DNA from: Bdellovibrionales bacterium
Lineage (GTDB): Bacteria; Bdellovibrionota; Bdellovibrionia; Bdellovibrionales; JAUICD01
Direction of reading: 5' to 3'
DNA: 56,862 bases
NCBI GenBank assembly: GCA_965197425.1
Contig: CBDANC010000006.1
Location: 1 to 56,862, forward strand
Each line of letters starts with the position of its first letter. Position 1 is the stretch's first letter. The position numbers and the translations under genes are program-made. The notes beneath the pieces are model-generated. The model was not told the origin of the DNA, searched no databases, and saw only the letters and a program-made list of their open reading frames with translations. Positions 10,939 to 56,862 of the stretch are shown in pieces.

Positions 10939-11609
10939 CCATTATCCCAAATACTAGTAGCCTTGAAACTTTCAAGCTCTCCATACAAACCCTGTATTAG
11001 CTCTGCCTTTTTATTTATAGCAGACATACACTCTTCCATAGATGGCTCCCTTCCTAGTAGAGATACAACTGTTGTTTGAAAATCATCTTCACTTCCAGCA
11101 GAGCCTAGTAGAGGTAGTGCTTTGGATAGTACTTTGACTGAAACACTTGTCTTTGTCCCTATTAAATTTTTGTTGTTGCCACTACCAGCGGTGTTTCCGC
11201 TACCAGTGGAGTTTCCATCTTCGAAGTGAGCTGAATGATCTCCATGTGTACTTGATATGGCAAATAAATTTTTGTTTAATAAATTTTTTAAGATGTTTTG
11301 TTCTCTTAGACTTTCAAATTTAGCAGTAGCAGAATTTTTCTGCTCTTCTTCTGAGATATCAGATGCATAGTAACTTCTAGATGAAGCAAAGGTCATGTAT
11401 TGTACAACTTCCATCATAGATAGGGTATAGTTTGTAATCAAAAGTAGCATAGACATGCCTATGACTATTAAGAACGCAAACATAAAATCAAATACTAAAA
11501 AACCCCTGTTATTCAAAGGTCTTCCAAACGAGGCAGAAAAGGGAAGCTTTGCTTTCCTTGTTGCCGAGTGGTTGCCCAGCTCTACACATGTCATTGATTT
11601 CATTTTCAT
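10932..11609 (-). CDS. TadE-like pseudopilin carrying two repeat-derived in-frame insertions
   Basis: NNRG|FLVFD plus TM helix; leader contains cassette 11516-11583; GNSTGSGNTAGS comes from two 18-bp units. Confidence 0.7.
   Translation of the reverse strand: MKMKSMTCVELGNHSATRKAKLPFSASFGRPLNNRGFLVFDFMFAFLIVIGMSMLLLITNYTLSMMEVVQYMTFASSRSYYASDISEEEQKNSATAKFESLREQNILKNLLNKNLFAISSTHGDHSAHFEDGNSTGSGNTAGSGNNKNLIGTKTSVSVKVLSKALPLLGSAGSEDDFQTTVVSLLGREPSMEECMSAINKKAELIQGLYGELESFKATSIWDNGC
11183..11218. repeat. Two 18-bp palindromic units inside CDS
   Basis: TACCAGCGGTGTTTCCGC TACCAGTGGAGTTTCCAT. Confidence 0.75.
11516..11583 (+). repeat. Hairpin cassette (short type I core, no Y module) inside the pseudopilin leader
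   Basis: AAGGTCTTCCAAACGAGGC...GCCGAGTGGTTGCCCAGCTCT. Confidence 0.9.
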
Positions 11610-11875
11610 TCGAAGGTTCCTCTTAGTGATACTCTTCGTTTCATATTAAAGTTTGGGTGAAGTTTTCTAGCTTCGGCTGGACCTTTTTTTTCCCAAACAC
11701 CACTTTCAACCATCCCAGACACCTTGCCCCACGGTTCTTTTATCATCATACCTGGCCAGGATGAGCTTCTTAAACTTTGGGATACAAACACAATTACGCC
11801 GGCAATTATGGTACCTATTAAAACTGTCTCTACTGTTACCTGCCCACTTTGTGCTTTTAGTTTTCTTCTTACCAT
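11606..11875 (-). CDS. Small TadE/Flp-like pseudopilin
   Basis: QSG|QVTVE motif plus TM helix; ATG 11875 overlaps the end of the peptidase gene. Confidence 0.7.
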   Translation of the reverse strand: MVRRKLKAQSGQVTVETVLIGTIIAGVIVFVSQSLRSSSWPGMMIKEPWGKVSGMVESGVWEKKGPAEARKLHPNFNMKRRVSLRGTFE

Positions 11876-12378
11876 GACAGGACACCTCTGTGATCTAGAA
11901 ACGAGTGGGTTATAAAAGCCAGGAAAAAACAAACTGTATAGGGTATGAAGGATAAATTTTGTTTTTCTGGTTTTACATTGTAGATAATCAGGTTCTTCAT
12001 ATTTAAAACAAGTTGTTTCAGCTTACCGTGAAATAGAGCCGACACTAGCCCCAGTATTCCACCCCAAATAATGGATAAAATTAAAACATCAATTATCTTG
12101 CCTGGTATAAAAATAGAAAGTACAAACAAGAGCTTTACATCACCAGCTCCTAACGCGCCTATATAGCAAAGCACAAGGCCCAAAGCGGACATAGTGACTA
12201 AACTAGCTAAAGATGCACCTAGGCCGACTGCGAGTCCAGACACATAAACTTGTGAACAGAATGCTATTATAAAAAAAGTTATAAACAAATAGTTTGGAAA
12301 CTTTTTGTAAAAAAGATCAAACACCACCGCAACCATTAGCACAATTGATGGAAATATTACTGTCACCGCAAGTTCCAT
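11869..12378 (-). CDS. cpaA: A24 prepilin peptidase (TadV/CpaA)
   Basis: FDLFYKKFPN, LGAGDVKLL, IPYT. Confidence 0.9.
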   Translation of the reverse strand: MELAVTVIFPSIVLMVAVVFDLFYKKFPNYLFITFFIIAFCSQVYVSGLAVGLGASLASLVTMSALGLVLCYIGALGAGDVKLLFVLSIFIPGKIIDVLILSIIWGGILGLVSALFHGKLKQLVLNMKNLIIYNVKPEKQNLSFIPYTVCFFLAFITHSFLDHRGVLSW

Positions 12379-12608
12379 TAGTCAAAATCCCCTTTTGTGG
12401 GCTTGCTCCAGCCCAATCCATCGCCTTCACCTGTGTGATTTTTAGCTTTGGTTTGAAATAAGCTGCCTGTATCTAGTTGCCTTTCAATTCTAGTAGCCAA
12501 TACTGGCCCAGAATTTATAAAAGCACTTTTAAAAGGACCATCTCCACCTAGAAATCCCGTTAAAATAAATGTAGCCAACAAAAGTAGTATTACAAGCTCT
12601 GTAGTCAT
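12378..12608 (-). CDS. Small Flp/TadE-like protein (start may lie slightly upstream)
   Basis: xxTELVILLLL pilin-like helix; P.LATRIERQL.TG; between flp and the peptidase. Confidence 0.6.
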   Translation of the reverse strand: MTTELVILLLLATFILTGFLGGDGPFKSAFINSGPVLATRIERQLDTGSLFQTKAKNHTGEGDGLGWSKPTKGDFD

Positions 12609-12637
12609 ACAACATTACCTTATAAAGCCATTACCAT

Positions 12638-12712
12638 TCACCAAATTTACTCATTTGATTTTCTAAATCACCCATCACCAAATTTACCCATTTGATTTTC
12701 TAGATCACCCAT
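12638..12712. repeat. 37-bp tandem duplication of the flp 3' end
   Basis: 12638-12674 vs 12675-12711, 2 mismatches. Confidence 0.9.
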
Positions 12713-12856
12713 TTTACCCTTTAACAGCCCCATGATTTTATCTTTAAAAATCACTAACACTGCTACCACGGCAACCAAGAGTAAAATATATTCAGTAGCT
12801 CCCTGAGCTTCTTCATTTTTTATAAAATCCTTTAAAAAGGCTTTTATCTTTTTCAT
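12668..12856 (-). CDS. flp: Flp family type IVb pilin
   Basis: 62 aa, EEAQGATEYILLL Flp motif (EY), GAGGT SD. Confidence 0.9.
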   Translation of the reverse strand: MKKIKAFLKDFIKNEEAQGATEYILLLVAVVAVLVIFKDKIMGLLKGKMGDLENQMGKFGDG

Positions 12857-12926
12857 CTTTTTACCTCACATAAAAAAATTATACTCACCTGTCATATCTA
12901 TCGGTAAACCCACAAAGATAAGTAAA

Positions 12927-13373: not shown

Positions 13374-15089
13374 ATGACACTAGATAATTACGAATGGTCA
13401 GACAGATTCCCATTAAGTGAAACTCAACTAGAGGAATGGAAAAAAGATCCAAAAAAACTTCCCTTACTCATTTGGGCGTTAAATACAGGAAACATTGATC
13501 CAGAGCAATTTAAAAATTGGGCGTCCAAATACTATAACCTTCCCAAACTGAAATCTAAATTTTTGGAGCAAATAGAAAAACCACTTGTTAGAGAATACAA
13601 ACACCTATTGGATCTAAATGTTATACCTATGAGAAAAAATGAAGGGGTGTTGTATGCAGCATGTATCGAACCTGTAAAAAATCTCCCTATAAAAGAACAA
13701 GTTCAGTTTTTAGTAGCATGTGCAGATGCCTTACAAGCTACAATACAAAATACCAAAGATAACCTGGATAAACCAGATGAAGAAGAAATTACGGAAAATT
13801 CACTTACCCCTCCGGATGGCATTGCTATTCCAAAAAATATAAAAGTGGGTACTCCACTGGCAACTGATGCTACTAATTTGCCTGACGGTTTAAACATAAA
13901 GCTTACAAAAAATATCAAACCAAATAAAAACTCAAATGAAGCACCAGAAGGCTTGAACATTAAACCTACAAGCAAACTAAAAAAGAAACAATCTGTGAAT
14001 CTCCTACAAGCGGAGTTTCCGCCAGATGGATTAGCTATAAAACCAAAATTTAAAAAGCCAGATCCTAAACTAGATACACCGGACATGCCAGACAACATAG
14101 ACATAAAGAAACTCAAAAATACCAAGTCATTTGTAAAAGATGATGTACCAGATTTTTCAGCAAAACAAAAAAATCCATCTAAAAAAGCAGCACCTAAGAT
14201 AACGCCTAAAGTGTCCTCTGATAATTTAAAAACAGCAACTAGCAAGCCTATCAAATTAAAACCTAAAACCAAAGATACAGAAAAAAATAGTCAGGCCTCA
14301 CACACCACAAAAGGTAACCCCACCCTAACTTCAGCACCAAAGATTGAAGGTCAAAAGATACCACCAGAGCCTGGTCAAGAAACAATAAAACCTATAAAAC
14401 CAAAACAAACCTTGGGTGATGTTCCTAAAAAAGATATTGAATCTAATGTGGTGCCATTAAAACCAAAGCAAGCATCAGAAGCGGAGACTCCGCCGGTAGT
14501 GGATACTCCACCGGTAGTGGAGACTCCACTGGTAAAAGATTTAAATCTTGAAGATAGAAAGGTGGAGGATGCTATAGAACAGAATCTGCCAAAAGTACCT
14601 GAAAACAATGTTCAAAGAATAAAACCAATTTCTAAAAAAAGTGACACAGAAGAAGTTAATCTGGAAAATCTTGATCCTGTGTTTTTGGAGAATATTTTAA
14701 GATCATTAGATAGTATATTTGATAACAAAGTTTTATTCTTTGTAAAAGAAGGTAAGCTTACGCCAGCACATTGGGATAAAAGCTTTGTGCCAAAAAGTAC
14801 CAACCCTTTGAATACATTAGATAAACCTAGCATTTTTAGAATAGCGTTTAAAAGTAGAGATAAATACTTTGGAGAAATATACAAAAACGAGGTAAACGAT
14901 TTGTTCTTTGACAATTGGATGGGCGGACAATATCCGGACAGGGTTACAATTTTAGCACTTCTAAATAGTGATAGGGTTTTTGGTTTATTTCTAGGTGTCC
15001 ACAAAGTGGTTGATACTACACTTGATACATTAGATGTTATATCCAAAGAAATCGGACAGAAACTAGTAAGCCAGCTTAAAGCATCATAA
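13374..15089 (+). CDS. Hypothetical protein: globular N-domain (possibly GspE/PilB-N-like), Lys/Pro-rich linker with PDGLxIK repeats, globular (possibly GAF-like) C-domain
   Basis: 571-aa ORF; repeats PPDGIAI/LPDGLNIK/APEGLNIK/PPDGLAIK; domain calls are tentative. Confidence 0.6.
   Translation: MTLDNYEWSDRFPLSETQLEEWKKDPKKLPLLIWALNTGNIDPEQFKNWASKYYNLPKLKSKFLEQIEKPLVREYKHLLDLNVIPMRKNEGVLYAACIEPVKNLPIKEQVQFLVACADALQATIQNTKDNLDKPDEEEITENSLTPPDGIAIPKNIKVGTPLATDATNLPDGLNIKLTKNIKPNKNSNEAPEGLNIKPTSKLKKKQSVNLLQAEFPPDGLAIKPKFKKPDPKLDTPDMPDNIDIKKLKNTKSFVKDDVPDFSAKQKNPSKKAAPKITPKVSSDNLKTATSKPIKLKPKTKDTEKNSQASHTTKGNPTLTSAPKIEGQKIPPEPGQETIKPIKPKQTLGDVPKKDIESNVVPLKPKQASEAETPPVVDTPPVVETPLVKDLNLEDRKVEDAIEQNLPKVPENNVQRIKPISKKSDTEEVNLENLDPVFLENILRSLDSIFDNKVLFFVKEGKLTPAHWDKSFVPKSTNPLNTLDKPSIFRIAFKSRDKYFGEIYKNEVNDLFFDNWMGGQYPDRVTILALLNSDRVFGLFLGVHKVVDTTLDTLDVISKEIGQKLVSQLKAS
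14481..14534. repeat. Three 18-bp palindromic units in CDS (AETPPV VDTPPV VETPLV); a further single unit at 13845-13862
   Basis: GCGGAGACTCCGCCGGTA GTGGATACTCCACCGGTA GTGGAGACTCCACTGGTA. Confidence 0.9.
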
Positions 15090-23198: not shown

Positions 23199-23216
23199 GT
23201 GGATACTCCACTCGTA
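23199..23216. repeat. Single 18-bp unit abutting the dprA start codon
   Basis: GTGGATACTCCACTCGTA. Confidence 0.85.
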
Positions 23217-24430: not shown

Positions 24431-24548
24431 ACAAGACAGTAAGACTAACAAAATAGTTCAATGTGCGTCAAAGACCTTAAGATAAGTTGTAGAGCATAAT
24501 GACTCAAAGTATATGTATATGTTGTTTAATTTCAATAAACCAAAAGTT

Positions 24549-39200: not shown

Positions 39201-39272
39201 TACGAGTGGAGTATCCACCACGGGTGGAGTACCCACTACGAGCGGAGTACCCACTACGAGTGGAGTATCCAC
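39201..39272. repeat. Four tandem 18-bp palindromic units in a divergent intergenic region
   Basis: TACGAGTGGAGTATCCAC-like x4. Confidence 0.92.
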
Positions 39273-43209: not shown

Positions 43210-43280
43210 TGCCAGATCACAGATCCTTAAGTGCCAGATCACAGATCCTTAAGTGCCAGATCCCAGATTTGATCGGGCAA
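43210..43280. repeat. 22-bp tandem repeat (2 full copies plus a divergent third) related to the four-helix-bundle flank
   Basis: TGCCAGATCACAGATCCTTAAG x2, then TGCCAGATCCCAGATTTGATCGGGCAA. Confidence 0.85.
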
Positions 43281-43286
43281 TAAATG

Positions 43287-43979: not shown

Positions 43980-44068
43980 ATCTCTATATCGCCCTTTACC
44001 CTTCTTGAGACAAATAAAAACACAAACCTTTTGAAAAAACTTTTCTTTAGCTATAAATTAAACAGCAT

Positions 44069-44620: not shown

Positions 44621-44670
44621 GTCCAATAAAGTGAGCTTGCTTGCTTTTTGGACTCATTGTTGCCCAGCAC
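44606..44670 (+). repeat. Short hairpin cassette that supplies the coaC stop codon
   Basis: AAGGTCTTC-AAATGAGTCCAA...TTGGACTCATT-GTTGCCCAGC. Confidence 0.85.
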
Positions 44671-44700
44671 TTTAACGTATAATATGACTTAAGTGACTAC

Positions 44701-45387
44701 ATGAATATACTTGTAACAGCAGGAGCAACTAGAGAAAAAATTGATGCAATAAGGTTTATCACCAACATCAGTACAGGAAAAACTGGACTATTTATTGCAT
44801 CTTATTTTAGTGAAAATGGCCACAGTGTCACTTTGCTAAAGCCTAAAAGTGTCACAGTGTCAGGTGCTCGATACAAAACAGATTCATTTGTCAGTGTTAA
44901 TGATCTCAAAAACAAACTTCATTTTTATCTCCAAAACTATACCTTTGATGCTGTGATACACTCGGCTGCGGTTGGTGATTTTAATGTAAACTACATAAAT
45001 CAAAACAATAAAAAAATAAAAAACCCTGACAAGAAGCTTAAAACATCTGACACATTAACAATCGAGCTTAAAGCCAATCCAAAACTCTTAAGTGAACTTA
45101 AATCTCTATCTAAAAATCCAAATATTTTAGTTGTAGGATTTAAGTTATCATACAACACCCAAGAAAAACCTAAACCAGATCAAAAGGTCGATATATGGGT
45201 TAGCAACAAGTATGAAGATGTAGATGGCTTTTTGCATAAAGCAGAAATTTATACAAATACAGGTGGAGTATCCACCACGAGTGGAGTTTCCGCTACAAGC
45301 GGAGTTTCCGCTGACAGTACAAAGAAAGTTAATAATAAAAAAGAACTATCTTGTGTTCTATTAGATATGATACAAAAGCTATTATGA
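44701..45387 (+). CDS. coaB: Phosphopantothenate--cysteine ligase (stand-alone) with an 18-aa repeat insertion
   Basis: VTAGATREKIDAIRFITNISTGKTG, HSAAVGDF, VVGFKL. Confidence 0.92.
   Translation: MNILVTAGATREKIDAIRFITNISTGKTGLFIASYFSENGHSVTLLKPKSVTVSGARYKTDSFVSVNDLKNKLHFYLQNYTFDAVIHSAAVGDFNVNYINQNNKKIKNPDKKLKTSDTLTIELKANPKLLSELKSLSKNPNILVVGFKLSYNTQEKPKPDQKVDIWVSNKYEDVDGFLHKAEIYTNTGGVSTTSGVSATSGVSADSTKKVNNKKELSCVLLDMIQKLL
45258..45311. repeat. Three 18-bp units inside coaB (TGGVSTTSGVSATSGVSA)
   Basis: TACAGGTGGAGTATCCAC CACGAGTGGAGTTTCCGC TACAAGCGGAGTTTCCGC. Confidence 0.92.
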
Positions 45388-46160
45388 TTATGGCATTGGA
45401 CATAGGTAATACACACATTTTTGGGGGTGTATTTGTAGAAGGTAAGCTTGCCTTTCGTTTTAGGAAAGGAACTTCACACAACACATCCTCAGATGAGCTT
45501 GGGATATTCTTAAGAACCATTCTAAAGGAAAATTCTCTTGATCGTATTGAAAAGATTGCTTGTTGCTCCGTAGTGCCTGATGTACTTCACACAATAAGAA
45601 ACTGCTCACTTAAATATTTTTCTATAGAACCATCCATACTTACCTCTACAAATACCAATATCAAAGTGTTGTACAAAAATCCTCTAGAGGTGGGGTCAGA
45701 TAGAATTGCAAATGCTCTTGCAGCCACAAATCTTTATCCTGGAAAAAATATTATTGTGGTAGATTTTGGTACTGCAAATACATTTTGTGCTATTTCAAAA
45801 AACCTGGAATACTTAGGAGGTTTGATAACACCAGGGCTTAAGCTATCGATGAATGCATTAGTACAAAATACAGCAAAACTCCCTAAAGTAGAAATAAAAA
45901 AGCCAGAGAATTTTTTAGGTTCCTCAACAGTAGAAAGTATTCAATCTGGTTTGTACCACGGAAGCTTGATAATGGTACAAGGACTTATAAATAAAATGAA
46001 AGATAAGCGCGGATGGTGTAACCATTTACTAAACGATGCATTCGTAATTGGAACAGGTGGCTTTTCTAGCTTGTTTGCAAACGAAAATTTGTTTGACACT
46101 GTAGATCAAAGCCTTGTGTTAAAGGGCTTACACATCCACACCTTGCAATTAACAAACTAA
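45384..46160 (+). CDS. coaX: Type III pantothenate kinase
   Basis: LDIGNT, EVGSDR, VDFGTA, GGLITPG, IGTGG. Confidence 0.95.
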   Translation: MIMALDIGNTHIFGGVFVEGKLAFRFRKGTSHNTSSDELGIFLRTILKENSLDRIEKIACCSVVPDVLHTIRNCSLKYFSIEPSILTSTNTNIKVLYKNPLEVGSDRIANALAATNLYPGKNIIVVDFGTANTFCAISKNLEYLGGLITPGLKLSMNALVQNTAKLPKVEIKKPENFLGSSTVESIQSGLYHGSLIMVQGLINKMKDKRGWCNHLLNDAFVIGTGGFSSLFANENLFDTVDQSLVLKGLHIHTLQLTN

Positions 46161-46265
46161 CAACACTGACCCTCCACTTGACAAAAATCAACTTGATACT
46201 GTTCTCACACCGAGGCACTTTTAGCACATAGGATTTTTCTTATTTAGTTTAAAGAAATTACATTA

Positions 46266-46423
46266 AAGGTCTTCCGAATGAGGTAAATAAGGGAAGCTTC
46301 GCTTTCCTTTTTTCAATTGGCTCACGGGATAAATCTTTATACTTTCCAATTGAAAGAACCTTCCTACAGTCGGTTTTTTATCCGAGTGATTGCCCAGCTC
46401 TGGAACATGATGCCGATCCCGTC
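46266..46423 (+). repeat. Hairpin cassette type I+Y
   Basis: Colinear with 21338-21468 plus the TGGAACA.GATGC.GATCCCGTC tail. Confidence 0.92.
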
Positions 46424-46544
46424 ACTATAAACTATTTTACACAACCTTAGGTTATTATTGCAAAATTCATCCATCCATGCTACAAAAGCATTCGAGGCAA
46501 TCAGCTCTACTCGCTTCAACCTAATAACCAAACACTTATTTTAT

Positions 46545-49500
46545 ATGTACATGTATTTAAATTTCAACCTAACTAGAAAAATAGCACCTCTGTTATTTTT
46601 CATTTTCTCTTTTTCTGTTAATGCTCAACAAACTCTAGGCGAGCTGGATACATACACAGATCCTAGTACAGCTGATCTTAGATTAGCGCAAAGTGCAGTT
46701 TCTTCATGTGAGATTTTACAGGAAGTTACTAAAATAGAAGCAAACAGCCTATCTTCACAAGAGTTTTTCGATAAACTACAAAAGACAGATTCTAACGGAA
46801 ATTTATTAATTGATACTGAAGGTTGTACTGAGAACATACTTCAGTTTGTATCATCTTTATGTTCTTCTGACTCAAATACTAACAAGTCATTTTGTAATAC
46901 CCTTGGCTTCAGTAATATTAGTAATACTATTGGTGGAGACTATAAGTCTTATGGTAGTTCTGCTCTAAGAGGCTTAGAATTAGGTAATTCTAATGCTCAA
47001 GCTCTTAGCAATAACCCTACGCTAACTAACGAAGGAAGCTCTACATTTTCAGTTACCAGCGGAGTTTCCGCAGCAGGACTTCTTTTTTCCTTTACTCCTA
47101 TTAAGAAGCTAAAGCTAGCAAGAAATTTAGTAAGATCAAATGTAGTAGCTTCTAGGGTAAAGCCTGTACTTAGTGGAGCTATGTTAATACTAGCTACCCT
47201 TGGTTTATCTTCATGTGGTGATGTTACAGAACCAGATCCTGATCCAATAATAGAGACTCCTTGTACTAGGGGAGAACCAGGGTATTTTCAGCTAACTAGT
47301 TCTACTGGTAATAGTGCTAGCAACTGTATACAGCTCATCGAACCTCCTACTATTACTTATCTTGATGAAGATGGGAATGTTATAAACACAAATGAAATCA
47401 CAAATCACAGCATAAAGGTAACCTTCAAAGAGGCTGTAGGCTTTATTGATGCTACTGACCATGGAAACTTAACTCCCGAGAATGTAGTTAAGATGGTTGA
47501 TATAAAGTTAGGTGATACTACGAGTGGAGTATCCACAGATCTTATAGATGTTGGTTTTAGTTTTACCGTAGAGATTTCAAGTGATGAGACTTCTTTTACC
47601 CTAACTCCGGAAGTAAATTACCCTGCTGGAGATTATGTAGTTGGTGTGAGTAATTATGCAAAGAAGCCTGATATATCCAAGATTGCTAATGCTACTAACA
47701 GAGCTGAGTATCTTAGCAGGGTTAATAGTATGTCCCAGTCTTTGTCCTCATTTAGTGTACATACTCCTTGTAGTAGAGGAGAGGATGGATATTTTGAGCT
47801 AAGAAATACGAATGGTTTGACAGATTGCATTAAGCTTATACTTCCTACTATTAGTTATCTGGATGAAGAAGGTAACCTTACAGAAGACACATCTACAATT
47901 ACAAATCATAGTATAAAGGTAATCTTTGATGGAAGGGTCAGTTATATAGACTCTTCTCGTTATGAAGGTCTAACAGCGGCTTTTGCAAGAAACATGATAG
48001 AGTTAAACATAAACAGTGAGAATTTATTAACTGGTACTTTTAGATTTCAGATAGAAGCTGGAGTTGAAGAAGATGAAAAATCATTTTTTATCTTAACTCC
48101 AATGTCAAGTTATCCTGCTGGAAGTTACTCAGTAAAAGTAAAAAACTATGTTAGTAGTCCTGATGCTTCAAAAATTGCAAATGCTACCAACACAGAAGAC
48201 TACCTTGCACTAATAAACAAAGGGTATTCTTCATTTTCAACACCTAATATTAGCACCTTGTGTGAAGAGAATGCTTCTGGATACTTTGAGCTAACAAATG
48301 AAGATGGTTCAAAGGACTGCATTAGGATTCCTCAGGTAGTGTTTACTTTTACCCCAAGAGGTGGAAGAGAGATGATTGAGTCAAACTTTGACCCGACTTC
48401 AGTTATAAAAATTTATTTTGATTCAGAGGTTGTGTATTTACCTGACTCTGGTCAATGGAGAGAGATTACCAAGGAAGATATTCTAGAAATGGTAGAAATC
48501 TCCATAAGACCTGAACACGGAAGAAGGGTTGATCATGTTAGTATGGACGGTGCTATAGGTTTAGATTTAGTGTCTGTAAGCAATACTGAGGGTAAGACTG
48601 TTATTACCATAGATTCTCCTTATGATCATACAAACGAAGAAGGAAGGATTTATGGTTTTCATGTTCCTTATAATATTATAGTCACAAACTTTGCTAAAAA
48701 AGCTGATGTATCCAAAGTTGCAAGTAGTAGTTCCATTGATTCCTATTTAGAGGATACTACAACTTTCTATCAGGGAATACATAGTGGATTGTACACAGCT
48801 ACCTCTTGTGATCTGGAATACAAACCATCTGGAGCAAGTTACGCTAGCTATCATGATCAGCATGGTGATGAAGAAGAGTCAGAAGATTTTATATGTGAGA
48901 CTGATGAAATGATGCATACCTTTTTACCTCCATCGGGAAGTACTACTTTTGATATGGCAATGTTTGATGCAGTGGATGATATTGATATGACTCATTTGGA
49001 AAAAACCAACCCTGGTACTAGGCATGTTATTGATCTTGCGTTTATTACTTCGGATGTTCTTTTTGAAAATGCTAGTGGTGATTGGCGTACATATTTTGAA
49101 AATAAAGTTATTAAAGGCTTAAACAAAATGTTTCAATATTCTGGAGTGAATGTTGAGTTTAGAGTTTCTCTGATTAATCCTTTTTCTGAATACAGGCAAT
49201 ATCTGTATTGTGATCTGCCTGCTATAGAAAATTTAGTTCATAAGGAACATGGATGGAAGGGGGAAGGAGTTGTGGTTGATGAATTAACTCCGATCATACG
49301 CAAACAACATCCTGTTGATATATTTGTTGTAATGCTTCCTTCTGGCGGTGGATATGCACGAATAGGTGATGGTCTTAGGCATTTCCCTGTTTCAGCTAGA
49401 TGGAGCTCTTCACTTGTTATGGGAGTTTCTGAGCATTTATTTAATATGAGTCTTAATGATGAACAAATTGAAGCTAGCACTATTAATGCTAGAAACCTCC

Positions 49501-49982
49501 TTGCACATGAAATTGGCCATGTTTTACGACTCAATCATGATGTAGATACTATGATAGAAGCAGGAGCATCTGCGGAATCACTTAGAACAACAATATATTG
49601 GACAAATGTTACTACCTTTGCTTACGGATACGGTGGTAGAAATAGTGACGAGCCCATTGGAACCGTAATGTCTTATGCCAGGCTTGATCAAATCATTCCT
49701 TTATTTAGTGCTGACAAGCAAATTTTAAGATCGGAACTTTGCGATACTGTAGAGAGGATTGGTGAGAGCCAACAGTATGGCTACTGTCGTAGTAGCAGCC
49801 CAAATCCAGATAGATTGATTAAGATTGGTGGTTCTTATAAGTATGGTATGTTTATAGACGCATCGGAAGCAATGCAATACACGGTTGGAGTTGTTTCTGA
49901 ATACTCTGATGTAGGTGCTGCTCCTTTAGATCTTTCGACAGTTTCTAACGCAATAACCGCGAGGGCACTGCGAGGCCACTGA
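46545..49982 (+). CDS. Large secreted metzincin (reprolysin-like) metalloprotease with three ~165-aa repeats
   Basis: Signal peptide ..SVNA|Q, internal LGLSSC, repeats starting T(P/L)C..GYF.L, HEIGHVLRLNH, GTVMSY; single 18-bp units at 47054 and 47519. Confidence 0.8.
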   Translation: MYMYLNFNLTRKIAPLLFFIFSFSVNAQQTLGELDTYTDPSTADLRLAQSAVSSCEILQEVTKIEANSLSSQEFFDKLQKTDSNGNLLIDTEGCTENILQFVSSLCSSDSNTNKSFCNTLGFSNISNTIGGDYKSYGSSALRGLELGNSNAQALSNNPTLTNEGSSTFSVTSGVSAAGLLFSFTPIKKLKLARNLVRSNVVASRVKPVLSGAMLILATLGLSSCGDVTEPDPDPIIETPCTRGEPGYFQLTSSTGNSASNCIQLIEPPTITYLDEDGNVINTNEITNHSIKVTFKEAVGFIDATDHGNLTPENVVKMVDIKLGDTTSGVSTDLIDVGFSFTVEISSDETSFTLTPEVNYPAGDYVVGVSNYAKKPDISKIANATNRAEYLSRVNSMSQSLSSFSVHTPCSRGEDGYFELRNTNGLTDCIKLILPTISYLDEEGNLTEDTSTITNHSIKVIFDGRVSYIDSSRYEGLTAAFARNMIELNINSENLLTGTFRFQIEAGVEEDEKSFFILTPMSSYPAGSYSVKVKNYVSSPDASKIANATNTEDYLALINKGYSSFSTPNISTLCEENASGYFELTNEDGSKDCIRIPQVVFTFTPRGGREMIESNFDPTSVIKIYFDSEVVYLPDSGQWREITKEDILEMVEISIRPEHGRRVDHVSMDGAIGLDLVSVSNTEGKTVITIDSPYDHTNEEGRIYGFHVPYNIIVTNFAKKADVSKVASSSSIDSYLEDTTTFYQGIHSGLYTATSCDLEYKPSGASYASYHDQHGDEEESEDFICETDEMMHTFLPPSGSTTFDMAMFDAVDDIDMTHLEKTNPGTRHVIDLAFITSDVLFENASGDWRTYFENKVIKGLNKMFQYSGVNVEFRVSLINPFSEYRQYLYCDLPAIENLVHKEHGWKGEGVVVDELTPIIRKQHPVDIFVVMLPSGGGYARIGDGLRHFPVSARWSSSLVMGVSEHLFNMSLNDEQIEASTINARNLLAHEIGHVLRLNHDVDTMIEAGASAESLRTTIYWTNVTTFAYGYGGRNSDEPIGTVMSYARLDQIIPLFSADKQILRSELCDTVERIGESQQYGYCRSSSPNPDRLIKIGGSYKYGMFIDASEAMQYTVGVVSEYSDVGAAPLDLSTVSNAITARALRGH

Positions 49983-50039: not shown

Positions 50040-53000
50040 CTACGGGCACGGTAGGTTCTCATTACAAGTACCACTACCATCACATACACCGCAAGTTCTG
50101 CAACCCGTACCAGGAGAGCTTGAATCGCATGTACCACCCTGGTCCCAACTGTATTGAGGTGGTCGGCATGAAAAGCATTCTGGACAATCGCTATCGTTAT
50201 CACAACAACCGTCTACAGGTTCACATCTATTGCCTATACACTGTGAACATTTAGCAGTGCAGTCACTATCGGAAGCACAACAATCTGGTATAGATACACA
50301 ACTTCCGCTAACACAATTCTCACAAGCTCCACATGAAGGGTTACACACAGGTACACACCTTTGGTTGACACATGTTTCAGTATTTGGATCACATGTAACT
50401 GGAGGACCACACTGTCCGTCAGAACTAGGACATGTTGTACATGTAGCCGTATCTACTGTACAAGTTGCTGACCCACAGGTATTACTACTACAACATGGGG
50501 TAGTTCCAGAGCACTGATTATCAGAAGTACAGCAGTTAGAATCAACCTGACAGGTATTACTACTATTACATTTATTGCAAGTTCCAGAGCAATCAGTATC
50601 TGAGGTACACCCTACACAATTACCAGTAGTAGTATCACATGTTGTTCCACCTGAACATGTAACTGGAGTACAACATCCACTAGCAGGGCAAGTTACACCA
50701 CATCCACAACTGCCACCAATATCACCAGTGGTACAAGATACTTCACCAGCAGAACAACCACAGCTAGGTTTGCAGGTACCAGAGCAACATACATCGCTTC
50801 CAGTACATGTTGATACTGGAGTTCCGCACGGTTCATCACATTTGGTACATGTAGCCGTATTGCTTGTGCAAGTTGGTTGTCCCGTAACAGGAGTGCCACA
50901 CGGCTTAGGGCATGTTACACAATTATCAGGATTTGCAGTACAAGTTGGTGGTCCAGTTTGATTGCATTGCCAAGTCGTACCTACACATTGAGCAGTCTCA
51001 CAATTATCGCTATCGCACGTTGGTTTTGTTGCACTAGGACATGTACAAGGAACTGTTTCATTACAAGATCCAGCACTGCATATTCCACATGCGCCACAAC
51101 TTGCTGTCACATTTCTTGGAGTCTCAGTTGTACTGTTAGGATCAGTGCACTCTTGACATTCAGAATCGGTTATTTGTGATCCACAAGTTGGAGGAGGATT
51201 ACCACAATTACCGGCACCATCACATGTTTGAGGAAGTACACATTTTGATGTTGGGGTTGCACAGTTATCGGCACACTGTTCGCATGCATTAGTATCTGCA
51301 ACACAAGGAGCTTTACAAGCTGGAGGATTCACACCAGTACAACAGTTTTCTCCAGTTGGACATCCACTACTTGTATCGCATTCCCAACCTCCACTACCAC
51401 ATATAACAGCCTGACAAGTGGCAGCACAATCTGGTTGTGCGCCTGAACAAGTAACACAAATAGAAGTACAAGTCCCTGGATTTTGACATGTTGGGGTTGG
51501 AACAGCACAGTCACCAGCCCCACTACAAGTAGGAGTTTTGCAAATTGCACCACACCTAACTTGACCAGTAGGACATGGAATATCCACACAACTAGAACTA
51601 CAAGTTCCTGCATCGCTACAAGATTTGCCTGCACCGCAGTCACTATTACTATTACAAGTAACAGGACAACAACTAGAGCCACAATTTCCTGCACCTTGAC
51701 ATACTCCACCAGGACAGTCAGCATCACTATTACAACCAACACCACCAACACAAGTAACACAACTAGCACTACATTGTCCTGCATCTTGACATGTTTCACC
51801 TGCATTGCAGTCGCCATCATCATCACAAGCAACAGAACAACAATTAGTTCTGCACTGATTATCAGGACAACAAGTCTGACCAGTTGGGCATGGATTAGGA
51901 GTACACACTGGAGGAGGTGGTGGCGGGGGTGGAGGATCTACACAACCCCCACTACCATCACATATCTTACCGCTTGAACATCTTGATACTGGAGAAGAAC
52001 ATGGACCGTGGCATTCTTCGCAGTTATTAGAACTTGCATTACATGGGGCCCTACAACTGTAAGAACAACATATATCACCACCACCACAATGACCGTTATT
52101 CAGACACTCAACACAATTACTAGCACCATCACAGTACGGAGTAGGGGCACTACACTTATACTGACAGACACCAGGAGTACCAAAACTACAACTAAAACAA
52201 TTAGGGGTATTACAAGGCGTAGCCCCTGTACAAATACCACAACCTAGACCATTGGTATTACAGGTAGCTCCACATGTAGGATCCTCATTAAATCCACAAC
52301 TCACACTACTAGGACATAAACGATCCACTGTCCTATTTAAAGAATCAAGAGGATGAGAACAGTTAGTACAAGGACCTCCTGTAGGACAAAGAAAAGGATT
52401 GTAGTTGTTAACACCACTACAACAATTTACACCAGCCTTATAACAGGTAACTCCACCTAAGCTTGCAGAACCACCATTACAAGATTGTCTGGTGGTCTCA
52501 GGGTAATCACGCATATAACCTTGGCCACATTGCACACAGGCTGTACCATCGTTTACACACTGCTCAACCCAATAATCACAAGTAACTCCAGTACCATTAA
52601 CAGGACGAACAGGGCTGTTCGCAGGACCTGTCCTCTCCTCTATGGAATCATCAAAATAATTATTGTAAATTCTAATATTACTAAGCTTTACACAACTAGA
52701 TGTACCGTTAGTTATACCATTACCTAATAATAGATTAAATGTATGCTCACAATCACTCCGAGCATTATAAAATGGATTAGCTATCCTACGGTTGTACTTA
52801 GCAATATTAGGATCAGGATTTGTAACACCACAGTTTTTGGAAGGAGTTGCGTAACTGCCAGAAGCATGAATATTACCAAACTGTGCACAGTTGTAGGCAA
52901 AAACCCTATGCTCCTCTGTATAATCATCACTCTGTATCTGTCCATTTTCTGTGGCAGAGTAATCATTACCATACTCATCTACTAACTTAAATCTAACTCT

Positions 53001-54728
53001 ATAATCAGCATCCTGATCTTCATCAGGCCAACTGGATACATTTAAATTATCTAACTCAAGTCCTAACGTACCATCATCTACGCTAGATAAACTAGCTATC
53101 AATGAAGCACGGTTAGGTTGACTAGAGGTAAGCTTAAAGTTCTCACATAAATCCCACTTAGGTGAACTTGTACTGCCATCCGTACTACCGGACTTTGTAG
53201 GGTTGCTTCTTATACCAAGCTTATGTACACCACCATTACCAAAAGGCCTATAGGAACTTAAACCTGCTATATCATCACAATTAGGGGTGCCCTTAACACA
53301 GTCCTCAAAACTACTCTTATCAAAACCACATAAAAAGACCCCTCTAAAATCTGCCTTATTAACACTATCATTCCAAACCTTACCAATATTCCTAAAGTTT
53401 AATGTAGCTTCTGTAGCATAATCACTAAGAGTAGCATGAGTAGCTCCATCAGGCTTAGTAGGGATAGAATCAGCAGCACCATACTTATAACCAACATTTA
53501 AACCAGGGTTGTTTTGAAGGGGGTGAGTTGTGGAAGCTATAAAATCATTAGAACCATCTTTAATCTCTCTGTCATGGTGAACATATACAGGTCTTCTAGA
53601 TGGAGGAACTGCAAAGCTGTTAGCATAAGCAAATAACTTATTTGACTTACAGGATCTTTCTAACTTATCCACACCAGGTCTTGTTTTAACTTCAACAAAT
53701 AACTTCAAACCTACATCTGACCTCATCTGGGCTGAAGTTAGACTCCTCTCCAGCTTATAACCAATCTTATTCTGTCTCTCTAATTCGTTGGTGCCTAAAA
53801 TACTATCTGTAATGTATCTATCATACTTAGAATGAGGTCTTAAAAAGACTGCTGGATGAACCTTAGTATCAGTACAACCAAGAGCACTACGATTAGATAA
53901 ACTCCAAGGCCTTATACCTATCTTCACATCATATGGCTGAGCAGTATTAGTATAACTAGTACTATAATCAGTAAAACCTGCTAAGAGATGCAAATTTAAG
54001 GCATTTTTGAGACTCTTGGATAAACCATATAAGTACTCAGAGGTAAAAGTATCCCAAGCATAATGATTAGAAGATAAATTAGCATCAGCCATTTCCTTAT
54101 AGTAATCAGGTTCAGGTCCTGGAGTTGCTGGTTTTACATCATCTAGCTTCTTATGTAAGTCTATCAGCTTAGCAGTGTTACCAGCCTCGTAGGTAATCAC
54201 CATATCATTAGCAAGATCAAAGGTCAGGTTATCTACATTAGATGGACATATGCTAGGAATGTTAGAACGATACTCGTTAAATAAATCTTCTACTAAACTA
54301 ACACCACTACCTCTATGAAACTTATCTACTTTCAAAGTAATGTGACTATTACTACCATGAGGCTCTATAACAAGATTAGGACCAGCATTATGAGTAGCCT
54401 CTCCACTAGGGTTTACAGATATAGTGCTTCTTTCTTCTATAGCTGCTTCAAAATCAGTAGGAGGAGTACCAGGGAAATGCTCTGAGTTAAGCAAAACAAT
54501 AGGCTCTAAGCCACCCTGAGAAAATCTCTCCATTACGTTAGTAGCTATAGCTGCACATTCATAGGAATCATCAGTCAACTTAGATGCCGTGTTCATCTGA
54601 CCAGATATAAATGTAACTACAAAACCAGATATGGATACTAAGGCTAAACCAACTACAGTCTCTATTAAAGTAAAACCACCACCAGTGGAGTATCCACCAC
54701 CTTGCAGATTGAATGATTGCTTAAACAA
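50040..54728 (-). CDS. Giant prepilin-motif protein with Cys-rich C-terminal half (start uncertain; frame open up to 54851)
   Basis: G|FTLIETVVGLALV type IV methylation motif; very many C, CC and CxxC motifs over ~850 aa; poly-Pro linker. Confidence 0.85.
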   Translation of the reverse strand: MFKQSFNLQGGGYSTGGGFTLIETVVGLALVSISGFVVTFISGQMNTASKLTDDSYECAAIATNVMERFSQGGLEPIVLLNSEHFPGTPPTDFEAAIEERSTISVNPSGEATHNAGPNLVIEPHGSNSHITLKVDKFHRGSGVSLVEDLFNEYRSNIPSICPSNVDNLTFDLANDMVITYEAGNTAKLIDLHKKLDDVKPATPGPEPDYYKEMADANLSSNHYAWDTFTSEYLYGLSKSLKNALNLHLLAGFTDYSTSYTNTAQPYDVKIGIRPWSLSNRSALGCTDTKVHPAVFLRPHSKYDRYITDSILGTNELERQNKIGYKLERSLTSAQMRSDVGLKLFVEVKTRPGVDKLERSCKSNKLFAYANSFAVPPSRRPVYVHHDREIKDGSNDFIASTTHPLQNNPGLNVGYKYGAADSIPTKPDGATHATLSDYATEATLNFRNIGKVWNDSVNKADFRGVFLCGFDKSSFEDCVKGTPNCDDIAGLSSYRPFGNGGVHKLGIRSNPTKSGSTDGSTSSPKWDLCENFKLTSSQPNRASLIASLSSVDDGTLGLELDNLNVSSWPDEDQDADYRVRFKLVDEYGNDYSATENGQIQSDDYTEEHRVFAYNCAQFGNIHASGSYATPSKNCGVTNPDPNIAKYNRRIANPFYNARSDCEHTFNLLLGNGITNGTSSCVKLSNIRIYNNYFDDSIEERTGPANSPVRPVNGTGVTCDYWVEQCVNDGTACVQCGQGYMRDYPETTRQSCNGGSASLGGVTCYKAGVNCCSGVNNYNPFLCPTGGPCTNCSHPLDSLNRTVDRLCPSSVSCGFNEDPTCGATCNTNGLGCGICTGATPCNTPNCFSCSFGTPGVCQYKCSAPTPYCDGASNCVECLNNGHCGGGDICCSYSCRAPCNASSNNCEECHGPCSSPVSRCSSGKICDGSGGCVDPPPPPPPPPVCTPNPCPTGQTCCPDNQCRTNCCSVACDDDGDCNAGETCQDAGQCSASCVTCVGGVGCNSDADCPGGVCQGAGNCGSSCCPVTCNSNSDCGAGKSCSDAGTCSSSCVDIPCPTGQVRCGAICKTPTCSGAGDCAVPTPTCQNPGTCTSICVTCSGAQPDCAATCQAVICGSGGWECDTSSGCPTGENCCTGVNPPACKAPCVADTNACEQCADNCATPTSKCVLPQTCDGAGNCGNPPPTCGSQITDSECQECTDPNSTTETPRNVTASCGACGICSAGSCNETVPCTCPSATKPTCDSDNCETAQCVGTTWQCNQTGPPTCTANPDNCVTCPKPCGTPVTGQPTCTSNTATCTKCDEPCGTPVSTCTGSDVCCSGTCKPSCGCSAGEVSCTTGDIGGSCGCGVTCPASGCCTPVTCSGGTTCDTTTGNCVGCTSDTDCSGTCNKCNSSNTCQVDSNCCTSDNQCSGTTPCCSSNTCGSATCTVDTATCTTCPSSDGQCGPPVTCDPNTETCVNQRCVPVCNPSCGACENCVSGSCVSIPDCCASDSDCTAKCSQCIGNRCEPVDGCCDNDSDCPECFSCRPPQYSWDQGGTCDSSSPGTGCRTCGVCDGSGTCNENLPCP

Positions 54729-54820: not shown

Positions 54821-54836
54821 GGGGGGGGGGGGGGGG
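54821..54836. repeat. G16 homopolymer tract
   Basis: 16 consecutive G in an AT-rich background. Confidence 0.9.
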
Positions 54837-55042
54837 TGAGTTAAATATTCGTTATTACTAAGGTTTTTAGCATTAACTTCTTCGCCAACAACATCAACAG
54901 CACCAGCACTGTTGGTGTTACAACTGTCGATACCCCTGTGAGAGTTTTTGTTTCGAAAGCCCCATCCCATAAACAAGATCATAACAAACGAGATACACAT
55001 TGCTATAACTTTTTTTAGAAAATCCCAATAAAATACACCACA

Positions 55043-55193
55043 AAGGTCTTCCTAACGAGGCAAAAAACAAGTGGACTTGTTATCTTTTTTGCTAAGCGAA
55101 TTACGTTCAACAACACTGATTGAGTTCAGCAAATAATGGACTTGTTCCATTTTTGCTGGACGAATTACGTTCCGGCACAGTCACTTAAGACCT
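55043..55193 (+). repeat. Divergent hairpin cassette with two cores, each followed by CGAATTACGTTC
   Basis: AAGGTCTTCCTAACGAGGC start; GGACTTGTT apex twice; ends AAGACCT. Confidence 0.75.
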
Positions 55194-55379
55194 CAACCTC
55201 CTAAAGCTTCGTTTGATTTTTGTCATAGGCCCTACGTTCTGGTGGGCCTCACAGCTTATCCACTTACACAACAATGACCTCCTTCTGACAACAAACTGGT
55301 TTGCCAGACGAGGGTAAGCGTTGGTAAATTAGAAAATGAGTTTATATTAAACCAAAAATTTTAAAACTATAAAAAGAAA

Positions 55380-56192
55380 ATGATAAAAATAAAAAATACC
55401 ATTTATCTATTAAACGAATTGAAAAAAAATATATTTTTGTTTTTGATTTTCATTTGCAATACAAGTTTGGCACAAGATGTGGAAACTCCACTCGTAAATG
55501 CAGAGGAAAGACGAGAAAGAATAGAAGGTGATAGTTACTTTGATACACTACAAACCATAGACAAAAAGGGGGTACATAAATACAGCGTAAAAGCTTCTCC
55601 TATAAGCGCAAATATTGGTCTAAAACTGGGTTTTATTAACCCGCCAGAAATAGACTCTAGAGTCAACTACAACACTATTTATGACTACAGTAAAAACTTT
55701 CTAATACTCGCAGACTATGAACACAAACTGTTCAAAAAACTTGGACACATGGCCATAAAACTAGGCCTTGGACTAATGTTTGCAAGGGGCACTGGAATCT
55801 TTGCAGAAGGAATTAATGCAGATAAACAAGCACTAGAAAAATATACACTAATAATAGCCCCAATTAGTGTAGGACTAAACTACAGACTTCAATACTGGAG
55901 CAACCAATTTTTATCCCCATTTGTACTAGCAGGAGCAGATATGTTTAACATTATGGAAATTAGAGATGATGGAGCAAGACCAAATGTAATGTCATCACCG
56001 TCAGTTCACTTTGGAGGAGGCATACAAATAACCATCGACAGCTTGGCAGGATCACAAGTAAATAACTTAGAAAAAGAATACGGAGTAAATCATATGTACA
56101 TACTAGCAGAAATAAGACAATACATAGGCATTACAACAAATGTAAATCTAAACAACACTTTATTTTTAGGTGGCGTTAGCTTCGACTTCTAG
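55380..56192 (+). CDS. Outer membrane beta-barrel protein
   Basis: Signal peptide SLA|Q, alternating beta strands, terminal Phe (GVSFDF); 18-bp unit at 55479-55496. Confidence 0.75.
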   Translation: MIKIKNTIYLLNELKKNIFLFLIFICNTSLAQDVETPLVNAEERRERIEGDSYFDTLQTIDKKGVHKYSVKASPISANIGLKLGFINPPEIDSRVNYNTIYDYSKNFLILADYEHKLFKKLGHMAIKLGLGLMFARGTGIFAEGINADKQALEKYTLIIAPISVGLNYRLQYWSNQFLSPFVLAGADMFNIMEIRDDGARPNVMSSPSVHFGGGIQITIDSLAGSQVNNLEKEYGVNHMYILAEIRQYIGITTNVNLNNTLFLGGVSFDF

Positions 56193-56202
56193 CAAAAAAA
56201 TA

Positions 56203-56238
56203 GTGGGTACCCCACTGGCGGTGAATACTCCACTTGTG
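56203..56238. repeat. Two 18-bp units between convergent genes
   Basis: GTGGGTACCCCACTGGCG GTGAATACTCCACTTGTG. Confidence 0.75.
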
Positions 56239-56248
56239 TTTGAACAAA

Positions 56249-56862
56249 TTAAAAATTGATAGAACTGTTACAGTAAACATAGCCAGAGCTAATATTATTC
56301 AAACTTTCTGAATACAAAACAACTACTGTACTACCCAAAGAAAACATACCCAACTCATCACCAGCACTGATATTTAAGCTATAATTTTTTAACCCACCGT
56401 CAAATTTACTATCAAAGGATACTTTAATACAACCAACATTTGTAGCTCCCACAAAAACCACACATACCTTCTTACCTTCCCTAGTTTCAATTTCTACAAT
56501 CAACCTCTCATTTACAATAAATAAATCTTTTTTTAATTTTACCATTGTACGGTTAACAGGCCACAGCTGACCAGAAATTTTATAAGCCCTCTTAATCACA
56601 CCATCAACAGGAGAATGCACCCTATGATAATCCCTAGGAGATAAATAATATGTTATAAAATACCTGTAAATGGAAACTCCACTCGTAGTGGAAACTCCAC
56701 TCGTACATGAATAATCTTTGGTATTTAAAAATTTCTCTAAGCTATAAGAAACTCCCTTGGCCCCAATAAGTGTAGAGTTATCAACTTCACCAAAAGTGGT
56801 AATAGTAGAATCACAGGGATGAAGAGGGGGATGCTGAATTTCCCTAGCACCCGGCCTTAATC
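56249..56862 (-). CDS. psd: Phosphatidylserine decarboxylase (5' end outside window) with a 12-aa repeat insertion
   Basis: LRPGAR, YLSPRDYHRVHSP, NER, VGATNVG, FSLGST; two 18-bp units at 56670-56705. Confidence 0.93.
   Translation of the reverse strand, partial: LRPGAREIQHPPLHPCDSTITTFGEVDNSTLIGAKGVSYSLEKFLNTKDYSCTSGVSTTSGVSIYRYFITYYLSPRDYHRVHSPVDGVIKRAYKISGQLWPVNRTMVKLKKDLFIVNERLIVEIETREGKKVCVVFVGATNVGCIKVSFDSKFDGGLKNYSLNISAGDELGMFSLGSTVVVLYSESLNNISSGYVYCNSSINF

Follow-up and report, generated by a model that had tools for sequence, protein, structure and literature searches.

The closest described relatives of the repeat reported here are short palindromic elements that enter genes. Rickettsia palindromic elements (RPEs; Ogata et al., 2000, 2002, as described in PMC10969869 and PMC3733652) occur in frame in many unrelated Rickettsia genes, including housekeeping genes. 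According to these two accounts, the added peptides are thought to lie in tolerated loops, a transposase is not known and the families are lineage specific; the elements are about 100–150 bp long, each encoding a conserved peptide (PMC10969869). Repetitive extragenic palindromes (REPs) of the GTAG and CGTC classes (Di Nocera et al., 2013, PMC3733652) have stems of 5–13 bp, short loops and 3-bp tails within a length of 20–40 bp. As presented there, REPs are mostly extragenic and often inverted dimers, and GTAG REPs accompany genes for REP-associated tyrosine transposases (RAYTs), CGTC REPs being without a known transposase; the GTAG/CGTC REPs are sometimes intragenic, including in replication and repair genes, single, dimeric or grouped, and are argued to form linkers or loops (PMC3733652). 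QMITE1 of Coxiella is described as a non-autonomous repeat able to extend or interrupt open reading frames (ORFs) in frame (PMC10969869). Palindromic amphipathic repeat coding elements (PARCELs; Roske et al., 2010, PMC2996958) are reported as coding tandem repeats with DNA dyad symmetry, apparently shuffled within genomes, which form 25-residue amphipathic domains in ORFs of unknown function and spread by gene transfer. The present analysis concerns an 18-bp hairpin unit found in contig CBDANC010000006.1 of a Bdellovibrionales bacterium (assembly GCA_965197425.1), the whole stretch of 56,862 nucleotides being called the window. The unit is probably a non-autonomous selfish element, copied by a predicted sequence-specific activity to ^NNNG sites, and it would be translated as hexapeptide loops.

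The repeat unit has the consensus GTGGAwACTCCACysGTr and the architecture of a hairpin with a 5-bp stem, a 3-nt loop and a 5-nt tail. With a position weight matrix (PWM) built from the genome's own copies, 23 units scoring at least 23 bits were located at 13 loci of the window. The motif GTGGAnACTCCACTCGTA matched the window 20 times at up to three mismatches and none of 100 dinucleotide-preserving shuffles, and Tandem Repeats Finder independently called period-18 arrays at 11174, 14483, 39202, 45259 and 56671. Eleven of the 13 loci lay in open frames, those at 23199 and 56203 being intergenic. Four reading frames were used (VDTPLV, GYSTG/GNSTGS, TSGVST and LQAEFP), and no array interrupted the frame of its host. 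An earlier note on this DNA had listed 22 units at 12 loci; all 12 loci were recovered at the same coordinates, and the total rises to 23 units at 13 loci with the addition of 14005. That every array leaves its host frame intact, as the note had claimed, was confirmed, but its nine loci within coding sequences and its three frames were undercounts: 10 of its 12 loci lie in open frames, and the frames number four in the window and five genome-wide.

The source genome (G000; 1,602,557 bp in 15 contigs, 35% G+C), of which the window is contig C6, was searched with the PWM iterated on its own copies. At a threshold of at least 14 bits, 127 units were found, against one in the reversed, uncomplemented genome; the scores were bimodal, with 118 units at 20 bits or more. 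Four hits were removed as they faced homologous sequence of the same length in a sister genome (C14:210648, C14:254658, C15:300593 and C15:389253), and C15:354041 (16.8 bits) was retained in the counts though doubtful. The remaining 123 units form 79 arrays, of which 53 hold one unit, 14 two, 6 three and 6 four, and all multi-unit arrays are head-to-tail. Within arrays, no polarity was observed, the 5'-most units scoring 27.0 and the 3'-most 28.0 (p 0.42). One unit type is common to the 79 loci, and not private to a locus as in minisatellites and other variable-number tandem repeats (VNTRs). Among the removed hits, C14:210648-210665 is a unit-like 18-mer (25.6 bits, VDTPLV) adjoining the 5' side of a ...NSGSASAAE stretch in a 541-codon, putatively S41-peptidase-like ORF; the sister genome carries TYAPIV, of the same length, at this position, pointing to a chance or convergent match or to replacement rather than insertion.

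The sister genome (G001), a same-genus species in one contig of 1,600,901 bp with the same G+C, was compared whole, the median ORF identity being 67%. At up to two mismatches the unit matched 73 times in G000, whereas 30 relatives drawn from 13 families of the order gave zero to two matches apiece, which is no more than a backwards control pattern. G001 gave four PWM hits of at least 14 bits, the best at 18.5, and among 400 further genomes of the phylum three had a single near-match, G000 having 37 at the same threshold. The tandem-junction pattern had no match in a collection of 185,579 species or in the JGI metagenome collection, from which the genome's own records may be excluded. The unit is therefore restricted to the lineage of G000.

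Empty sites in relatives carry the case for insertion. Of the 83 arrays scoring at least 14 bits, the 80 lying in an open frame of at least 60 codons were compared with G001 by tblastn: three had no hit, 19 were not spanned by the alignment and 58 were. Among the spanned arrays, 42 face a net gap in G001 (20 of exactly the array length, 22 within three residues of it or longer), three face a smaller gap and 13 no gap. These 13 comprise the four removed hits and nine arrays in proteins only 27–45% identical to G001, and four of the nine (13845, 14005, 47054 and 47519) were resolved as insertions by closer sequences. Paralogues within G000 at 85–93% identity show clean differences of 18 or 36 nt with no duplication, and codon-level alignments revealed neither target duplication nor loss of target bases. 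The empty sites place the insert ends at G1...A18, with a shift of 0 to +5; an alternative phasing of the unit that begins with GTAG was rejected on this ground. At C12:93995, a unit interrupts the hairpin of another, intergenic repeat family, of which more than 20 uninterrupted copies read ...AAACAA|GTGGACTTGTTCAC. On these alignments, the units are clean insertions of 18 × n bp.

The loci of the window, with the number of units at each, are as follows.

11183..11218, minus strand: two units inside an ORF at 10932-11609 (minus; 225 aa, no family), read as DGNSTGSGNTAGS.
13845..13862, plus strand: one unit inside an ORF at 13374-15089 (plus; 571 aa, no family), read as VGTPLA.
14005..14022, minus strand: one unit (26.4 bits), antisense to ORF 13374-15089, read as LQAEFP; missed by the earlier note.
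14481..14534, plus strand: three units within ORF 13374-15089, read as AETPPVVDTPPVVETPLV.
23199..23216, plus strand: one intergenic unit, abutting the ATG of dprA (22302-23198, minus) and 50 nt after nhaA (23267-24451, minus).
39201..39272, minus strand: four units that immediately follow the probable ATG of an ORF for a matrixin-like peptidase (38385-39278, minus), read as VDTPLVVGTPLVVGTPPVVDTPLV.
45258..45311, minus strand: three units antisense in coaB (44701-45387, plus), read as TGGVSTTSGVSATSGVSA.
47054..47071, minus strand: one unit antisense in a 1174-aa ORF (46458-49982, plus), read as TSGVSA.
47519..47536, minus strand: one unit antisense in the same ORF 46458-49982 (plus), read as TSGVST.
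54680..54697, minus strand: one unit in the leader of a giant prepilin-like ORF (50040-54728, minus), GYSTGG standing just before GFTLIE.
55479..55496, plus strand: one unit in a Bd0486-family outer-membrane barrel ORF (55380-56192, plus), read as VETPLV in the N-terminal part after ...SLAQD.
56203..56238, plus strand: two intergenic units, between the convergent barrel gene and psd.
56670..56705, plus strand: two units antisense in psd (56249-56860, minus, running off the contig), read as TSGVSTTSGVSI.

At 11183, exactly 12 codons are missing from the orthologue in G001, which is 70% identical. The units at 13845 and 14005 each face a 6-residue gap in the two closest homologues, P0135 (64%) and P0136 (57%), and the 14481 array is missing from both of these and from G001. 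In the 1174-aa ORF, a paralogue at C12:75720-75623 lacks exactly the 18 nt of 47054, and the paralogues C14:360462 and C15:160380 have a unit there too; the 18 nt of 47519 are exactly missing, with no target duplication, at C15:159873-159992 (93% identity), C14:359931-360050 and C12:76191-76073. Paralogues of the prepilin-like leader occur both with and without the unit. In the alignment of orthologues, which the earlier note had looked to for empty sites at three genes, CoaB has an exact 18-codon gap in G001, psd a 13-codon gap and the barrel a net 3-codon gap. In the AlphaFold model of CoaB (mean predicted local distance difference test score, pLDDT, 85), the sole segment below 50 comprises residues 189-204, which are the insert, modelled as a loop between strands 181-185 and 207-210. 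With only the insert disordered in the model, CoaB is predicted to tolerate it.

Just upstream of the called start of the prepilin-like ORF, 16 consecutive G occupy 54821-54836 (C16 when read on the coding strand). The run lies within the stop-to-stop frame of the ORF and resembles a poly-C switch, and one contig of the public run X4 stops there in the G run. The window also holds a 22-bp tandem repeat at 43210-43268 (2.7 copies, 97% matches), the surroundings of which (43140-43286) the X3 and X4 contigs skip, and a second tandem repeat, of 37 bp, at 12638-12712 (2 copies). No Rfam family, tRNA or tmRNA was found in the window.

Recent change was evaluated in public sequencing runs. Six runs contain window 38000-47900, of which X1, with 95% of the sampled words, may represent the source sample; no RNA data were listed among the public runs for this segment. 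The strain comparison used Logan contigs of runs from two other studies, about 90–97% alike, in which, as they are contigs, rare variants would go unseen. X3, X4 and X5 all lack the four-unit array at 39201, their contigs skipping 39201-39282, with 11 other letters in X4/X5. The empty allele of X4/X5 is read through and gives ATG GTG CTG, compared with ATG + 72 nt + CTG, so that the two differ in frame by 69 nt. At coaB, three units are present in the window, two in X5 (18 nt missing) and one in X3 and X4 (36 nt skipped). An ENA protein (P0001) 94% identical to the CoaB of the window carries one unit, and homologues at 73%, 68%, 62% and below carry none. The unit at 55479 is present with no gap in the X3 contig. 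Thus, related strains differ in the presence and copy number of units, and at coaB a head-to-tail array varies between strains in the manner of a VNTR.

Placement of the arrays was assessed on a heuristic ORF set (first start to stop, at least 90 aa, overlaps removed), in which 1386 ORFs cover 87.7% of the genome. The scan showed 70 of 79 arrays (88.6%) in ORFs, as expected from the coding share (binomial p 1.0); of the nine others, eight are intergenic and one partly overlaps an ORF. Array placement is indifferent to coding or non-coding DNA. Within ORFs, the positions lean to the N-terminal fifth, and some of these arrays may precede the true starts. The 70 intragenic arrays are read as VDTPLV (21), TSGVST (20), GYSTG (12), RVEYP/PVEYP (11) and YEWSIH (6). 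The sixth frame, WILHS, has TAG at unit junctions and was not used by any of the 70, the chance of which under equal frames is (5/6)^70, or about 3e-6. Since the stop-prone frame is absent, ribosomes presumably read through the units, this being the sole evidence of translation and an indirect one.

Conservation of the unit follows the DNA and the hairpin. At stem pair 2/12, T-A was found in 88 units, C-G in 25 and a broken pair in 10 (Fisher p 1.5e-17, which overstates independence as the copies share descent), and at pair 5/9 A-T in 100, T-A in 7, G-C in 5 and G-T in 8. These two pairs have the highest mutual information among the 153 position pairs, and at least three compensated stem variants occur (GCGGA/TCCGC, GTGGG/CCCAC and GTGGT/ACCAC). 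Positions 7, 8, 10, 11, 13, 16 and 17 are nearly invariant, and position 15 is free. The same positions vary (15, 18, 2 with 12, 6 and 14) in every frame class and in intergenic copies, and substitutions follow the pooled profile and not codon position; in frame anti-0, only 1 of 25 substitutions fell at third positions. Both the covariation of the stem and the conservation at the DNA rather than the peptide level, as asserted in the earlier note, are thereby borne out. The predicted DNA hairpin of the unit has an energy of −3.4 kcal/mol (z −3.7), and those of arrays range from −7 to −17 kcal/mol.

The flanks of the arrays point to a target preference. In unit orientation, 58 of the 79 arrays have a G at +4 after the unit (background 21%), and every frame class shows this; the left flank has no signal. 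The same G is already present in 6 of 12 empty sites in G001 and in 11 of 19 paralogous empty sites, of which some are duplicated through paralogy and two are merely 30-nt matches. The +4 G is accordingly read as a putative preference for ^NNNG, a rule which the unit's own 5' end, GTGG, also satisfies.

In the favoured explanation, an enzyme recognizing the folded hairpin together with loop and tail bases would copy the unit to ^NNNG. Because the GTGG start of the unit itself fits the target rule, fresh copies would tend to settle immediately 5' of existing ones and so give rise to head-to-tail arrays. Replication slippage would then alter copy number within arrays, and selection would purge insertions that create stops or disturb folds, such that those in loops, linkers, leaders and termini remain. 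The earlier note had proposed, as one of two readings, a codon-neutral selfish element that adds peptides to proteins, the other being a protein-bound DNA site. The selfish-element proposal fits every test run, movement and peptide production being inferred only; the orthologues are without the peptides rather than carrying them with divergent codons, and the frequency of the motif is far above chance rather than at the level of shuffled sequence. It is also conceivable, though we put it forward tentatively as the less likely outcome, that, among mobile DNA so far seen in bacteria, the unit is the smallest, a single 18-bp hairpin inserting cleanly and with no target duplication at ^NNNG by machinery unlike known hairpin transposases or recombinases, and colonizing essential genes as freely as spacers owing to a length that is a multiple of three and five open frames.

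The genome was searched for a mobilizing activity. The RAYT/IS200-type HUH nuclease or integrase to which the earlier note had pointed was not found in it. Six-frame searches of G000 gave no Y1_Tnp/RAYT (PF01797), RVT_1 (PF00078), Phage_integrase (PF00589), TnpB zinc ribbon (PF07282), IS110 DEDD transposase (PF01548) or DUF559 (PF04480), and the controls responded each time. Y1_Tnp had no match in G000 or G001, and 6 of 14 named control genomes matched. Since the assembly is in 15 contigs, a multi-copy mobile gene could be missing from it. Among the ORFs of G000, 203 had no match in G001, and the 127 of at least 130 aa were scanned against Pfam. The scan identified defence genes, two DDE transposases, a T5orf172 nuclease-domain protein, three 23S_rRNA_IVP genes and six proteins of repeated HTH_Tnp_1 domains, and none of these genes was tied to the unit. 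The six HTH-repeat proteins (283–576 aa; C15:241255-246286, 344777-347098 and 188267-189319) carry many HTH_Tnp_1/HTH_23/BrkDBD domains and no catalytic domain, and are candidate binders of repeated DNA. The 23S_rRNA_IVP (four-helix-bundle) genes, not in G001, are located at window 2366-2860 (minus), C12:103352-103843 and C15:352729-353253. As a separate observation, Phage_integrase (XerC/XerD-type) was unmatched in G000 and G001 and matched in all 14 control genomes, which may be an issue of sensitivity; a missing tyrosine recombinase is unusual for bacteria with a circular chromosome.

Several observations weigh against the favoured explanation. No mobilizing enzyme was found in the six-frame searches, and the sole transposases among the 127 scanned ORFs are the two DDE genes, with no units on their contigs. 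The target signal is confined to one base, and the arrays showed no strand bias (18/18 against 9/11 on contigs of opposite skew, p 0.78), GC skew tracking gene strand such that replication strand is indistinguishable from it. The polymorphism at 39201 is not a clean multiple of 18, as the empty allele retains GTG and differs by 69 nt. The ORF calls are heuristic, and arrays near N-termini may sit upstream of true starts. Adjacent units differ at 2.53 positions compared with 4.01 for distant pairs (0 of 5000 permutations as extreme), and because adjacent units are more alike, slippage or local copying explains part of the arrays with no enzyme.

The strongest alternative dispenses with a dedicated enzyme: template switching at hairpins to an ectopic copy, followed by slippage, would generate the repeats, and selection would retain the in-frame, tolerated products. 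No known hairpin transposase or recombinase was found in G000, copy number changes between strains by whole units, and the likeness of adjacent units is as this process would leave it. The arrays are also clustered, with 32 of 74 neighbour gaps below 1 kb against 3.8 expected (maximum 11 in 2000 simulations), partly because paralogous gene families share sites. Further, the empty allele at 39201 shares its GTG with the unit, and the unit at C12:93995 lies just 5' of a pre-existing GTGGAC. However, the left junction is without microhomology (at most 0.26 bit) and the right-hand signal falls at +4, not at +1 to +3; exact 18 × n blocks are inserted at sites unlike the unit; and several loop and tail bases are nearly fixed while position 15 is free, resembling recognition by a protein. 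Local copying between arrays found no significant support either, as units of different arrays less than 3 kb apart were not significantly more alike than distant ones (p 0.11). An enzyme is favoured over template switching because of the sharp ends, the near-invariant loop and tail bases, the covarying stem and the lack of microhomology; replication error on its own is unlikely, and keeps some weight because no enzyme was found and slippage is evident.

Much less probably, the unit would serve as a DNA signal, for instance a DNA-uptake sequence or the site of a nucleoid or regulatory protein, and be enriched by selection or uptake bias and not by mobility. Both orientations are about equally common (36 arrays on the plus and 43 on the minus strand), the copies lie in coding DNA in tolerated frames and are specific to a single lineage, some positions hardly vary, and G000-specific proteins of repeated HTH_Tnp_1 domains exist. 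Nevertheless, the copies consist of inserted whole units and tandem blocks instead of resident sequence altered by point mutation, and a protein-bound site would leave the insertion in tandem blocks unexplained. The arrays are strongly clustered rather than evenly spaced, number only about 79 in 1.6 Mb and vary in presence among strains that are about 95% alike. Protein-level selection of a peptide repeat (V-D/E-T-P-L/P-V), to which the commonest frame, VDTPLV, and the fall of several variable positions on third codon positions in that frame might point, is refuted by the use of five frames and both strands, the 9 arrays not inside ORFs, variation that ignores codon position and orthologues without the peptides, as is an assembly artefact by units in the ENA protein and in contigs from the independent runs of two other studies.

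The hosts of the probable selfish element are diverse. The 70 intragenic arrays fall in 48 ORFs, named where possible by NCBIfam and Pfam. They include the proline-, glutamine- and tyrosine-tRNA ligases (ProS, GlnS and TyrS); proteins handling DNA or RNA (TopA, which is DNA topoisomerase I, XseA, RecX and NusB); enzymes of central metabolism (citrate synthase, the class II fumarate hydratase FumC, GcvP, the E2 component of pyruvate dehydrogenase, DeoC and ManC); the GTPases and export proteins ObgE, YchF and SecF; and PssA of lipid synthesis. In the window, the hosts include CoaB, Psd, the matrixin-like peptidase, the Bd0486-type barrel, the giant prepilin-like protein and a member of a five-copy family of 1200–1500-aa proteins. 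GcvP (glycine dehydrogenase) has three internal arrays and one unit at or just before the start codon. Two of the arrays are at places of length variation among 120 homologues; at the third (residues 396-413), none of the 120 has a residue in the six alignment columns of the first unit, and none has more than 4 residues in all 18 columns.

These hosts indicate that selfish DNA need not avoid genes: a six-codon unit with almost no stops is found in coding DNA at the density of random placement in an 88% coding genome, its hosts extending to tRNA ligases, topoisomerase I, citrate synthase and the glycine cleavage P protein. Taken together, the copies are equivalent to a natural scan of about 48 proteins by hexapeptide insertion, and they supply length variation between strains. 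If an enzyme is behind the duplication-free 18-bp insertions, it would represent a new kind of DNA-insertion activity.

Other, longer repeat families lie mostly outside long open frames, in the window (13122, 21213, 21337, 25943-25990 and 46265) as well as genome-wide. They include AGAGCTGGGCAACCACTCGGC in 73 copies and AAGGTCTTCCGAACGAGGC in 61, as well as a terminator-like hairpin, GTGAACAAGTCCACTTGTTTTT. In the last of these, TCCACTTGT equals positions 9–17 of a common variant of the 18-bp unit, and because of this match the unit may derive from the terminator-like hairpin. The unit at C12:93995 sits within a hairpin of this type. The abundant intergenic repeats of G001, e.g., ACCTTGAACGTTG (91 copies), are unrelated to the unit. 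G001 also has a CRISPR-array-like 36-nt repeat every 66 nt (G001:C1:460001-480000, at about 8466-8930), with 36 copies genome-wide.

Comparison with known systems places the unit nearest to the RPEs and the intragenic REPs. Like an RPE, it stands in frame in 48 host ORFs with empty sites in relatives. It differs from families RPE-1 to RPE-10 in its size of 18 bp, arrays of 1–4, five frames and coding-proportional placement, the two being set apart by description and not by sequence; the host of RPEs is an obligate intracellular alphaproteobacterium, whereas that of the unit is Bdellovibrio-like, so that RPE-like coding palindromes are extended to this group. Like a REP, the unit is a small stem-loop, present in genes, single or grouped; at 18 bp, with a 5-bp stem and a 3-nt loop, it falls just below the published 20–40 bp. 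However, 89% of its arrays lie in ORFs, it forms direct repeats and no RAYT was found in the genome. It is also without a GTAG/CGTC tag: GTA is its 3' tail, and GTAG arises only across unit junctions.

In-frame, ORF-fusing repeats of the MITE type (miniature inverted-repeat transposable elements) include intragenic enterobacterial repetitive intergenic consensus (ERIC) and enterobacterial RU elements, and MITEs in general have terminal inverted repeats, target-site duplications and a parent insertion sequence (IS), at 50–400 bp. The unit likewise is a non-autonomous repeat that extends ORFs in frame, but it measures 18 bp, inserts as clean 18 × n blocks with no duplication and has no parent IS, and there are no units on the contigs with DDE transposases. 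IS608 and TnpA-REP systems transpose single-stranded hairpins, leave the target unduplicated and follow a short sequence rule next to the insertion point. With its hairpin, duplication-free insertion and putative flank rule, the unit most resembles in anatomy this IS200/IS605 and REP/RAYT mechanism among those known; G000, however, has no Y1 HUH transposase or TnpB, and the unit has one hairpin instead of two distinct ends, a target rule of one base (G at +4) and no strand bias. PARCELs share with the unit a coding tandem repeat with DNA dyad symmetry, but the unit forms 6-residue inserts scattered in housekeeping enzymes. DNA uptake sequences (USS/DUS) are short, lineage specific, in both orientations and in coding DNA, arise by point mutation, which leaves the length unaltered, and are evenly spread; the unit resembles them in being short, lineage specific, in both orientations and in coding DNA in tolerated frames, and differs in consisting of whole-unit insertions that are tandem and clustered.

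Among the matches listed in literature searches, none described an in-frame hairpin unit of 18 bp and none dealt with such repeats in bacteria of the Bdellovibrio-like group. Compared with RPEs and REPs, what is new is the size, the head-to-tail arrays, the five frames, the coding-indifferent placement and the host group, although families of similarly small size could be among the intragenic REPs listed in PMC3733652. The 18-bp unit joins the in-frame palindromic repeats typified by RPEs and the intragenic REPs as a minimal variant.

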